From: Fimicolochytrium jonesii
Taxonomy: Eukaryota
Assembly (NCBI RefSeq): GCF_025526975.1
Contig: NW_026515683.1
Location: forward strand, 496,001-560,000
Direction: 5' to 3'
DNA length: 64,000 nucleotides
The notes beneath the pieces are model-generated. The model worked only from the letters and a program-made list of their open reading frames with translations, had not been told where the DNA came from and made no database searches. This document shows positions 34,666-37,245 of the stretch, piece by piece; positions within the stretch are counted from its first letter, which is position 1; each line of letters begins with the position of its first letter. A program made the translations under genes and the position numbers.

Positions 34666-37245
34666 CTACCTACGGCTACGGGAGAATGCGTCTGGTCTGC
34701 GGCCATCGCCAAACACCACCGAGCGCACAATCGAGAGGAAATTCTTGGTGCTTAGGACGTCCCGATTGTGCACTCTCATCCGTAGTGGTCGTCTTCCAGG
34801 AATCTCAAATGGCGTCCAGTCTTGGTTGATACATTCGGGGTTGGGGCAACCCACCAATCCATGGACGAATTCCATTCTTCCCTTTCTAGCTTGCCACGGC
34901 CGAGGTGATAGCCGTTGTCGGATGTTTTTCTTCACACGACCGTGGCAGTTGGGGCACACGGACGACGTTCGATACTCATCCAGCAAGTAGCATGGAATGC
35001 TGTTTCTCGCAAAGAGTGTGCGGAATCTGTTCCATGATGAGTTAGGATATTATAGTACATCAAAAACAATGATGGTCACTCACCCCTTGGTCTTTGATGA
35101 CTCCTGAAAGCGCATCGTTTTCCCAGCATCGCTTCAATCACCCAAGATGACCGAAAAATGCTTTCCATACCGGCGCCGCATGTTCTTGATGAGCTTGCTC
35201 TCAGACTTTTGCCGCAGTGAGAATGCCTTGAATCTGCGAGCGACGTGAATCTCATCCTGGTAAAACTCATCCAGGGCGGGATCTTGAATATGGATGTCAG
35301 CCCATGTTTACCCAAATTTGAAGAGGATACATGATACATCATACCTGCATGTATGTGATCCACAATGAACGCGGAGAACGCCTCGATGTTCATGCTCTTG
35401 TGCGACGGAATCTGTGATTCCATCTCAGCAACGCCGGCATTGATCTTCCGCTCTGTCGTGTCTCTCCGAAAGTACCGCAACTTTGTCTCGACCGCCCGTT
35501 GATTGGATGTGTATCTGATATGGGGTGGTGCATTGTGAGGACGCTGCAACGGAATGTCGCCGCAACGGGGATGGCGGAGACGGGGGGCTGGCGGGTGGAG
35601 ACGGGGGGCTGGCGGGCGGAGACGGGGGGCTGGCGGGTGGAGACGGGGGGCTGGCGGGCGGAGACAGGGGGCTGGCGAGTGGAGACGGGGGGCTGGCGGG
35701 CGGAGACGGGGGGCTGGCGGGCAGAGACGGGGGGGGGGGGGGGTAGCGGGGACAGCAGGGCAGTAGTAATCAACTGAAACTTACCGAAATGGCCGCCCCT
35801 TCTTGATGTCTTGACAGAACAGGAGATCACGCTTGCCCGGATCAATGCAGACGATGTTTGGAGCCTCCCTTAATTCGTCAATGTGGTGCTCAAAATACAG
35901 CTGCTTGACCTCTTCCCGCATTTGGGCCTTGCTGCGCTTCCGCGCCCGATGGCCATACTTGAGCGATGGCTTCTTGAAGTGGATGGTCACGGAATACCCG
36001 TTGGTGCTGATTGACCCATCAAATTTGAGACCCAGCTTCTTTCGATGTTTGAAGACCTTGTCCTATAATCCGTCATTCAGCGACATAATCTGATTGAAAT
36101 AAGCGCATAAGGATAGAGACTTACATTCATGTTGAGAAACTGCCCCCACAGCTCCCGCTTGCATTGATCGGTGAGTTTCCCCATGCGATGGCGGCTCAAG
36201 CCCAGGATATGGGTGGCTAGGATCAGAGAGTCGATCCGAACAGATGACTGGATTCGAGATTTGCGCAGCGGGACAGTGGAAAACAGGCGCATTCCACGGC
36301 GCTCATAGAGGCGCGAGAGCTCACAGTAGGCACCTGGTGAGGCAGGTGTGGACCATGATTAGCCAAAAGAGGAAGCCGCGGGGTGGGGAGCGAAGGGGGG
36401 GTAGGGGGGGGGGCGTGTATGTTCAGCGAGCGGCGAACACGTTGTCGGCGATGGTTACGTCAATGCCGTGGCGGTGGGCAAGAGCATCAGCCGCGCCCCG
36501 GGCCGGTGGCGTCGTCGAGGCGGGGGAGGAGGGGTTAGGGTTAGGGGGGGGGGGGGGGAGGGGGCCGGAGCCAAGCGTGCGGGTGCCCAGCGGCAAGAGC
36601 GCATCGAGAACCACGTCGGCCGGGGTCCCGGCAGGCAACCACTCGGCCAGATCGGCGTACCAAGCGAGGCGCTTTGGGGGGGGGGGAGGGGGGGGGAGTG
36701 TGAACATACGGGATGCAACTCACCTAAATATGGCATTGCATCCACCGCAAGGCTGTATGCAAGCGGTTCATCCTGGGGAGGAAACAGAGCCCATAACTCG
36801 TCAAGGAGATTCCGCTCAAGTCGTGTGAGGCCAGCAAACTCCTCTTCGGTTGGGTACTCTTTGAACGTCGCGTACTTTGTAAACCGATTGACACGCCGAT
36901 AATAGTGTCGCCGCTGCGCTCGGCTGACTCCGGCTCTCCGAAGATGCAGTACGACTTGCTTCACACCAAGCCTTTCATTGACATAGCGCAGAAACATTTG
37001 CATAAAATGCTCCTGTACGTTGACTTTAAGGTTGGTGAAGATGCTCGTAGCTGTGTACGCTGCGGTCTGTTGGCTATTTCGCATGCAGATGGGGGCAAAT
37101 CCGTGAACATTACAGTACTCTTGAACCCGTGGATGCAACTCTTGCGCGATGACCGGATTGCCGTTGTAGCCTGGATTGTTTAGCCGCTCAAATATCACAC
37201 TAATGTGCTTGTCGGTGATGTCCGGGAAATCGTGTAGAGGATGAT
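34666..37245 (-). pseudogene. Fz1: Fanzor1 (eukaryotic TnpB-like RNA-guided endonuclease), five introns, one premature TGA, N-terminus not found
   Basis: Exons about 37245-36724, 36333-36125, 36062-35785, 35514-35345, 35282-35084 and 35026-34666. Motifs: TNLKVNVQEHFMQM, VCIDPGKRDLLFC (RuvC-I), FRYTSNQRAVET, IPSHKSMN, RQKSESKLIKNM, GD*SDAG, LLDEYRTSSVCPNC (RuvC-II), VHGLVGCPNPEC and HNRDVLST (RuvC-III). These match SpuFz1 as I recall it. Confidence 0.92.
35572..35745. repeat. 21-bp G-rich minisatellite (about 8 copies) inside Fanzor intron 35515-35784
   Basis: Unit GG(C/T)GGAGACGGGGGGCTGGCG. GAGAC recurs every 21 nt from 35577 to 35724 and ends in a poly-G run. Confidence 0.95.

Follow-up and report, generated by a model that had tools for sequence, protein, structure and literature searches.

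The minus strand of a 64,000-nt stretch of Fimicolochytrium jonesii DNA (the window) carries an intron-containing gene for a Fanzor1 protein. Fanzor1 proteins are the eukaryotic relatives of the RNA-guided DNA cutters TnpB and Cas12. The locus raises the question whether it is a working nuclease gene, a gene one repair away from working, or a relic, and to which kind of element it belonged. With a probability of about 0.88, the window copy is a 5'-truncated, nonsense-bearing and very likely dead Fanzor1 copy of a many-copy, intron-rich Spizellomycetales family, whose intact form would work like SpuFz1 of Spizellomyces punctatus.

Exon-intron structure of the window copy

In-silico splicing of the six minus-strand exons (34666–37248) gave a continuous frame of 579 codons, interrupted by one internal stop (Table 1). 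All five introns, with lengths of 390, 62, 270, 62 and 57 nt, have GT-AG ends. When the sibling protein P0033 was aligned to 34600–37400 by a spliced protein-to-DNA alignment with no intron coordinates supplied, the identical five introns and the stop were recovered, and 530 of the 575 aligned residues were identical. The five introns and their in-frame joining proposed in the initial annotation were thereby verified. Homologous copies back the introns as well. The junctions are contiguous in most of the sibling models that span them, where the counts in Table 1 refer to gene models of one annotation, not to reads, from 62 proteins examined (three unrelated, P0027 included). Independent support was provided by the intronless SpuFz1, to which P0033 (residues 129–759) aligns without break across all intron positions (E = 4.6e-149).

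The first exon present starts behind an acceptor AG at 37250–37249. A sixth, 5'-most intron therefore exists, which was missed when the gene was described with five introns and six exons. The gene was also described as hidden from the ORF track. It is absent from that track, but it had been annotated already: the deposited model P0027 (388 aa) equals the spliced residues 55–442 letter for letter, uses four introns and ends at the TGA. Its contig has the length of that of P0080, the deposited model of the upstream neighbour, and P0027 is most likely the window locus's own annotation.

The introns differ in composition. The GC content is 70–73% in the two long introns (36334–36723 and 35515–35784) versus 35–37% in the three short ones. 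One long intron contains poly-C runs and two telomere-like CCCTAA units, and the other contains a 21-nt minisatellite, the unit of which appears different in the sibling models P0015 and P0054.

Table 1. Features of the Fanzor1 locus and its flanks (window positions)
Positions	Strand	Feature	Remarks
33182..34514	-	Host MFS transporter gene	MFS_1, E = 3.6e-18
34555..34643	-	Candidate omegaRNA scaffold and right end	First stem-loop at about 34636–34615 resembles SpuFz1 SL1
34666..35026	-	Last exon: RuvC-II Glu, TS-x-x-C4 zinc finger, RuvC-III Asp, stop TAG	Glu 34977–34975; Asp 34761–34759
34956/34947/34848/34833	-	Zinc-finger Cys codons	
35027..35083	-	Intron, 57 nt, phase 2	Junction contiguous in 43/45 spanning models
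35084..35282	-	Exon with premature TGA	
35134..35136	-	Premature TGA	Position of SpuFz1 W507
35283..35344	-	Intron, 62 nt, phase 1	Junction contiguous in 41/43 spanning models
35345..35514	-	Exon, RuvC helical part	
35515..35784	-	Intron, 270 nt, phase 2	Junction contiguous in 28/32 spanning models
35573..35734		21-nt minisatellite, 7.7 copies	Within the 270-nt intron
35785..36062	-	Exon: WED strands, Y345 equivalent, RuvC-I Asp	Asp 35843–35841 in IDPG
36063..36124	-	Intron, 62 nt, phase 0	Junction contiguous in 21/25 spanning models
36125..36333	-	Exon, REC/WED	
36334..36723	-	Intron, 390 nt, phase 1, 70% GC	Junction contiguous in 15/17 spanning models
36724..37248	-	First exon present, REC domain	Q129, Q130 kept; N133 to Ala at 37060–37058; R96 loop shortened, without Arg
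37249..37287	-	Remnant of the sixth (5'-most) intron	Ends in acceptor AG 37250–37249; 5' break of the element inside; upper limit inferred from the neighbour's ATG
37288..38142	+	Host gene, acidic N-terminus, histone-fold-like C-terminus	Head to head with the remnant; bounds the deletion

The locus belongs to Fanzor1

Three exons were searched singly against solved structures. SpuFz1 (8gkh) was the top match of each (E = 2.9e-22, 1.1e-17 and 5.9e-30), and the matched chain positions (501–636, 709–789 and 919–1027) are in colinear order, which bears out the proposed closeness to SpuFz1. Fanzor1 is defined by the C-terminal motif D-x(125,275)-[TS]-[TS]-x-x-C4 finger-x(5,50)-RD, as described in PMC3627910. 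The frame of the window copy, read through the stop, contains this motif at D318, T480-S481, C484/487/520/525 and R-D549. The rearranged RuvC-II Glu, E477, lies 7 residues before the first Cys, and the triad aligns with SpuFz1 D383/E541/D606. The catalytic D (IDPG), E (LDEY) and D (NRD) and the four Zn-binding Cys are thus intact, as initially annotated.

Consistently, the only PDB sequence matches of P0033 are SpuFz1, PpFz1 and GtFz1. An AlphaFold2 model of P0033 was built from 11 sequences (mean pLDDT 64, pTM 0.53; residues 1–132 mostly with pLDDT <50), and its best fold matches by Foldseek were SpuFz1 (E = 4.7e-45), PpFz1 (2.6e-26) and GtFz1 (9.7e-16). These three proteins occupied ranks 1–7; mimivirus Fanzor2 reached E = 0.017, and Cas12f and TnpB were far behind. 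The context is eukaryotic and multi-copy, with spliceosomal introns, fungal neighbours and 62 family models. The window copy and its family are Fanzor1 (large REC lobe, 600–700 aa core), not Fanzor2 or TnpB. No Pfam family above cut-off was found for the exons or the siblings. The family search matches carried the label PF26935, and no PF26935 match was found by Pfam scan.

The window copy has lost its 5' end and carries a premature stop

The TGA at 35134–35136 stands where Trp is found in 48/48 covering sibling models and in 7/7 outside relatives, as the initial annotation had expected. The zinc finger and two of the three catalytic residues, the Glu and the last Asp, are encoded behind it and are cut off. 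Decoding of TGA as Trp was ruled out, because the neighbouring gene at 37288..38142 terminates at TGA, where its deposited model P0080 also ends; TGA is thus a stop in this genome. The TGA had been taken for the only internal lesion. It is the only frame-breaking one in the 579 codons, which contain no frameshift, but 20 missense changes were also found, each present in ≤10% of the siblings (near-private). T210S and S349L are among them, at sites where 7/7 outside relatives have T and S/T. The other copies carry 9–25 near-private changes. Arg is the residue most often changed among the copies (5.1% versus 2.9%), but the CpG observed/expected ratio of the exons is 0.99, and methylation-driven decay is not claimed.

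The second lesion is at the 5' end. In 15 of the 17 sibling models with DHPL, this motif is part of an unbroken KYY(Y)L-ADHPL, and the siblings continue upstream for ~180 more residues. At the same place the window reads CAG|CTGAT, followed by unrelated sequence, and no match or trace of the missing upstream exon was found in the 64-kb window, including 26.7 kb upstream. The loss of ~70 N-terminal residues noted initially agrees with the comparison to SpuFz1 (about 65 residues, 1–65) but not with that to the copy's own family, where 179 residues are missing. The missing part covers the equivalents of SpuFz1 H21 and K25 (WED contacts, N-terminal strand), which are reported to contact DNA and RNA (PMC10432273). 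The promoter and the left end are presumably missing too. A large insertion into the first intron is disfavoured: a conserved host gene comes next, and the rest of the window in that direction (26.7 kb) lacks the missing exon.

With the equivalent of SpuFz1 1–65 absent and a stop at W507, the frame is not that of a complete, active nuclease. The TGA, the missing 5' exon(s) and the 20 missense changes together make the window copy very likely dead. It could make at most the annotated 388-aa fragment, which has one of the three catalytic residues and would be inactive. The suggestion that a single repair would restore the gene was not upheld: reverting the TGA would not give an enzyme, because the sixth intron and the first exon(s) are lost and a conserved host gene begins 38 nt away, and the near-private missense changes would remain. 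The inactivation was called recent, which holds in a relative sense only, with the nearest sibling models 92–95% identical to the window copy as protein.

The flanks are host genes. The ATG of the upstream neighbour, at 37288, lies 38 nt from the orphan acceptor. Its product, an orthologue of S. punctatus SPPG_02424 with 60% identity over residues 3–283, matches Pfam Histone with E = 4e-4, below the curated cut-off. The first ATG of the MFS gene (34514–34512) lies 40–55 nt past the candidate right end of the Fanzor copy. No Helitron or other transposase was identified beside the copy, where the neighbours are these two genes, no inverted repeat joining its two ends was found, and when the window was compared with itself, neither a second copy nor a ghost of either end appeared. 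As side observations on the upstream gene, P0080 starts at residue 120 although the homology begins at residue 3, the product has only 6 matches among 50% representatives, and the region upstream of the gene is the one occupied by the Fanzor remnant.

A family of sibling copies in F. jonesii

F. jonesii belongs to the Spizellomycetales, as does the host of SpuFz1. Searches with the first and last exon returned only F. jonesii-labelled proteins (16 and 13 matches), which are 54–98% identical in the best local segment. When cluster members were added, 62 of the 79 collected proteins were family models (>75% identity), the named ones labelled F. jonesii; these are gene models, not loci, some of which may represent two parts of one locus, and in three pairs the overlapping stretches are identical. 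Family members are annotated only as 'uncharacterized protein'.

In 6/61 sibling models, the N-terminal WED motif and the last catalytic motif occur together. P0033 (761 aa) and P0034 (693 aa) have the whole frame without large gaps and look full-length, in line with the earlier expectation that intact siblings may exist, here as two predicted proteins. They carry 18 and 25 near-private changes, respectively, and in P0033 the Thr of TS-x-x-C is replaced by Lys. P0033 also has a family N-terminal extension of ~130 aa, which is Pro-rich and predicted to be disordered. The D/E/D triad and the four Cys are kept in nearly all covering models (D 33/35, E 47/47, D 42/42). The siblings depart from the family majority at 2.9% of cells (542/18,783), as expected of decaying copies. 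Several models read into sequence matching the window copy's introns (P0038, intron 1; P0015, intron 3; P0044, intron 4; P0043, intron 5). The sibling model P0072 is fused to a segment which resembles a tyrosine recombinase by eye and is probably a nested DIRS-type insertion.

No report of an F. jonesii Fanzor1 family was found among the listed Fimicolochytrium papers (title or abstract start) or in the literature on Fanzor and Powellomyces. The genus Fimicolochytrium is absent from the searched supplements of PMC10432273 (two files outside the search) and PMC10530073; those files and other catalogues may hold it.

Six family intron positions, unmatched in the relatives compared

The family introns are located at P0033 residues 179, 354, 424, 516, 573 and 639. 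To compare them with relatives, 80 of 116 confirmed loci of a metagenome scan were kept and 10 were subjected to spliced alignment. Five near-complete loci with 37–46% identity (L001, L002, L003, L006 and L007) have an intron at about P0033 residue 273; three of these have another at 698, and one at 649. L005 has no intron, and none is seen in three partial loci. An intron of L043 at residue 641, two codons from the window copy's last intron, was considered unreliable, since it removes conserved residues. None of the relatives' positions in the 10 aligned loci matches the six of the family, and introns at 273 and 698 are absent from the window copy.

In a 25-row tree, the family formed one clade (100/100) that is sister to the Gaertneriomyces protein P0063 (100/100). 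On this tree, the distribution of the residue-273 intron takes two changes to explain, and a single origin is compatible with it. The simplest reading is that the six introns were probably gained in the family's own lineage. Intron-bearing Fanzors are already published and are not new in this family: Fanzor genes are described to capture introns, up to about 9.6 introns/kb (PMC10530073), and Fanzor1 genes with five and ten exons are given in PMC3627910. Separately, the soil-metagenome Fanzor1 genes L002:763-2757, L003:1995-3927 and L006:8-2095 are 41–44% identical to P0033 with two introns each, show no stop or frameshift in the aligned part and may be intact candidates; L002 and L003 have, by eye, a TTCC-stem-loop shortly behind the stop.

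Residues contacting the TAM are changed in the family

The equivalents of SpuFz1 Q129, Q130, Y345 and W569 are kept in the family. N133 is replaced by Ala/Gly in 23/23 models and N385 by Gly in 33/35, giving a DPG RuvC-I motif. The loop around R96 is shortened by five residues, and the residue aligned with R96 is Gly in 16/18 sibling models and in the window copy, and Arg in 2; the loss is judged by sequence alignment, and another residue may take the role. All 7 outside relatives have Arg in this loop. In SpuFz1, N133 and R96 are described to read the CATA TAM (PMC10432273). The REC-loop arginine anchors the TAM duplex and is conserved in Gt, Spu and Pp Fz1, and R85A abolished GtFz1 activity, as reported in PMC11423790. 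The changed N133 and R96 contacts therefore suggest that the family reads a different TAM or is weakened. Judged from the alignment, the expectation that an intact member would work like SpuFz1 is weakened by the missing arginine in 16/18 sibling models.

A further reading, which we offer tentatively and regard as somewhat doubtful, is that the family is an unreported SpuFz1-class lineage with its whole intron set replaced (six gained, and without the two introns that the soil-metagenome relatives share), a 130-residue disordered N-terminus and rebuilt TAM contacts (N133A, anchoring Arg lost). If this is true, and if cleavage activity survives in intact siblings such as P0033, the TAM that they use would differ from CATA and might be less stringent, and they would anchor the DNA in a way that none of the three solved Fanzor1 structures shows.

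A candidate omegaRNA behind the stop

Published SpuFz1 omegaRNAs open with a run of T followed by CCG, after which come a stem and the loop entry GTTRTC (PMC10432273), and SL1 consists of seven pairs in each of the three Fanzor1 complexes solved (PMC11423790). An SL1-like motif was found at 34642–34625, starting 23 nt after the stop; the pattern, written post hoc, occurs once in the window and in 0/100 shuffles. The segment is predicted to fold as an SL1-like hairpin. With z-scores from +0.69 to -0.95, the omegaRNA region did not fold significantly better than shuffled sequence. A relaxed version of the motif was present in only 3/80 related loci, in no case just behind a Fanzor stop, and no Rfam match was found in 33900–38500. 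Two candidate 3' ends of the scaffold are present: TA at 34570–34569 would give 75 nt, the SpuFz1 length, and TA at 34556–34555 would give 89 nt.

Comparison with known Fanzor1 systems

SpuFz1 (Spu-1/SPu-1; PDB 8GKH, 9CEU-9CEZ) is the closest known system. P0033 is 41–44% identical to it over about 620 residues; the family keeps the D383, E541 and D606 equivalents and the C4 finger besides the four residues named above, the window copy has a candidate SL1-like segment shortly behind the stop, and full and partial copies are many in a Spizellomycetales genome. The differences are the family's six introns against the single ORF described for SPu-1 (PMC3627910), the N-terminal extension, the N133, N385 and R96-loop changes, and the truncation and stop of the window copy. 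Many-copy Fanzor families with partial copies are normal: 42 Fanzor loci, 19 of them full-length, and 134 ghost loci are listed for S. punctatus (PMC10432273). Elements of the Spu-1 type are described with 30–33-nt terminal inverted repeats and a TA target duplication. The nearest relative outside the family is P0063 of Gaertneriomyces sp. (637 aa, hypothetical protein; 53% identity), which, in contrast, has no N-terminal extension and keeps DPN and the Arg in the REC loop. According to Saito et al., reportedly, no transposase was found inside Spu-1.

Compared by description, CRe-1/2/3 (CrFNuc) of Chlamydomonas reinhardtii are also Fanzor1 genes of 5–10 exons in multi-copy DNA transposons (PMC3627910, PMC10530073). 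They come from a green alga and are Helitron2-associated, unlike the window copy. PpFz1 of Parasitella parasitica (PDB 9CF0-9CF3) is a fungal Fanzor1 that shares the DPG RuvC-I motif (P0033 match, E = 2.4e-37), but it is only about 20% identical in the structural alignment with the P0033 model and has a roughly 100-aa FRI insertion (PMC11423790), which is absent from the family.

Other features of the window

At 6002–6900 (+), a frameshifted TnpB/Fanzor2-like relic has an LDPG motif and, in a different frame, a DEAYTTKTC..C zinc-finger segment. Its Pfam matches (OrfB_IS605, E = 0.056; Cas12f1-like_TNB, E = 6e-4) are below the curated cut-offs, and it has no meaningful PDB sequence match. Three tandem paralogous short ORFs with a common WxMPGAPGxEE motif are located at 38500–41175 (-), with the repeats D3 and D5; no Pfam family above cut-off was found for them, and their atlas matches at 0.80, to unnamed and mostly phage clusters, are at chance level. 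An uninterrupted ORF at 41667–43652 (-), 661 codons from stop to stop, is hydrophobic at the N-terminus, and its C-terminal domains are fibronectin-III-like (DUF4959, E = 7e-7). Its composition is unlike the flanks, with about 66% GC at 42001–43000.

Alternative explanations

That the copy is functional or nearly so, with the TGA an assembly error or read as Trp and the first exon elsewhere, is barely credible. The intact catalytic triad, zinc finger and five introns and the absence of a frameshift over 579 codons would fit it, but the neighbour ends at TGA, the N-terminal exon is absent from 26.7 kb upstream with a conserved host gene directly upstream, and T210S and S349L fall on conserved sites. 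It is also improbable, if less so, that the remnant was co-opted, either as a 388-aa product or omegaRNA serving the host or other copies (a trans guide donor like the SpuFz1 'ghost' loci) or as a promoter element of the MFS gene. P0027 does use four introns and end at the TGA, an omegaRNA-like stem-loop is retained, the MFS ATG is 40–55 nt from the candidate end, and S. punctatus ghost loci are reported to give working omegaRNAs (PMC10432273). Yet the 388-aa fragment is without the WED N-terminal strand and most of RuvC, and the copy shows no sign of special constraint, because its 20 near-private changes resemble the 9–25 of other copies.

An earlier loss or weakening of nuclease activity in the whole family, which then spread as a passenger of a transposase in trans, is unlikely but deserves more weight than either of these. 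The replacements at the R96, N133 and N385 sites, the Arg retained in the R96 loop of all 7 outside relatives and the Lys that even P0033 has in TS-x-x-C point to it. Against it, D/E/D and the four Cys are kept in nearly all covering models, a full reading frame and six introns that can be spliced persisted until the burst, and PpFz1, which also has DPG, cleaves DNA in vitro (PMC11423790). A dead copy of a family whose intact form would work like SpuFz1 remains our preferred reading.

Origin of the copy and meaning of the family

By analogy to SpuFz1, the intact element would be a non-autonomous DNA transposon, whose spliced mRNA would give a protein of about 760 aa. The right-end omegaRNA, with about 15 nt of flank as guide, would direct a TAM-dependent cut at an empty insertion site, and repair from the occupied chromatid would restore or copy the element, following the homing model for Fanzor elements (PMC10432273; review PMC13565253). 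The copies probably spread as DNA, because the introns are retained and shared among the siblings; for the same reason a processed (retro) origin was rejected. The window copy would have inserted between two host genes, and the loss of its left part and the premature stop would have come later.

The window copy itself is an ordinary transposon relic, and its value is as a pointer to a large Fanzor1 family in a relative of the SpuFz1 host. ORF-based mining would miss this family because of the introns. SpuFz1 has been engineered for genome editing. Going by their predicted proteins, the few full-length-looking siblings could serve as candidate editing enzymes, and they would be cheap candidates for a wider Fanzor target range because the TAM contacts are changed. 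The family is also a case of intron turnover inside a mobile gene, with six positions not found in SPu-1 or in the relatives' DNA compared.
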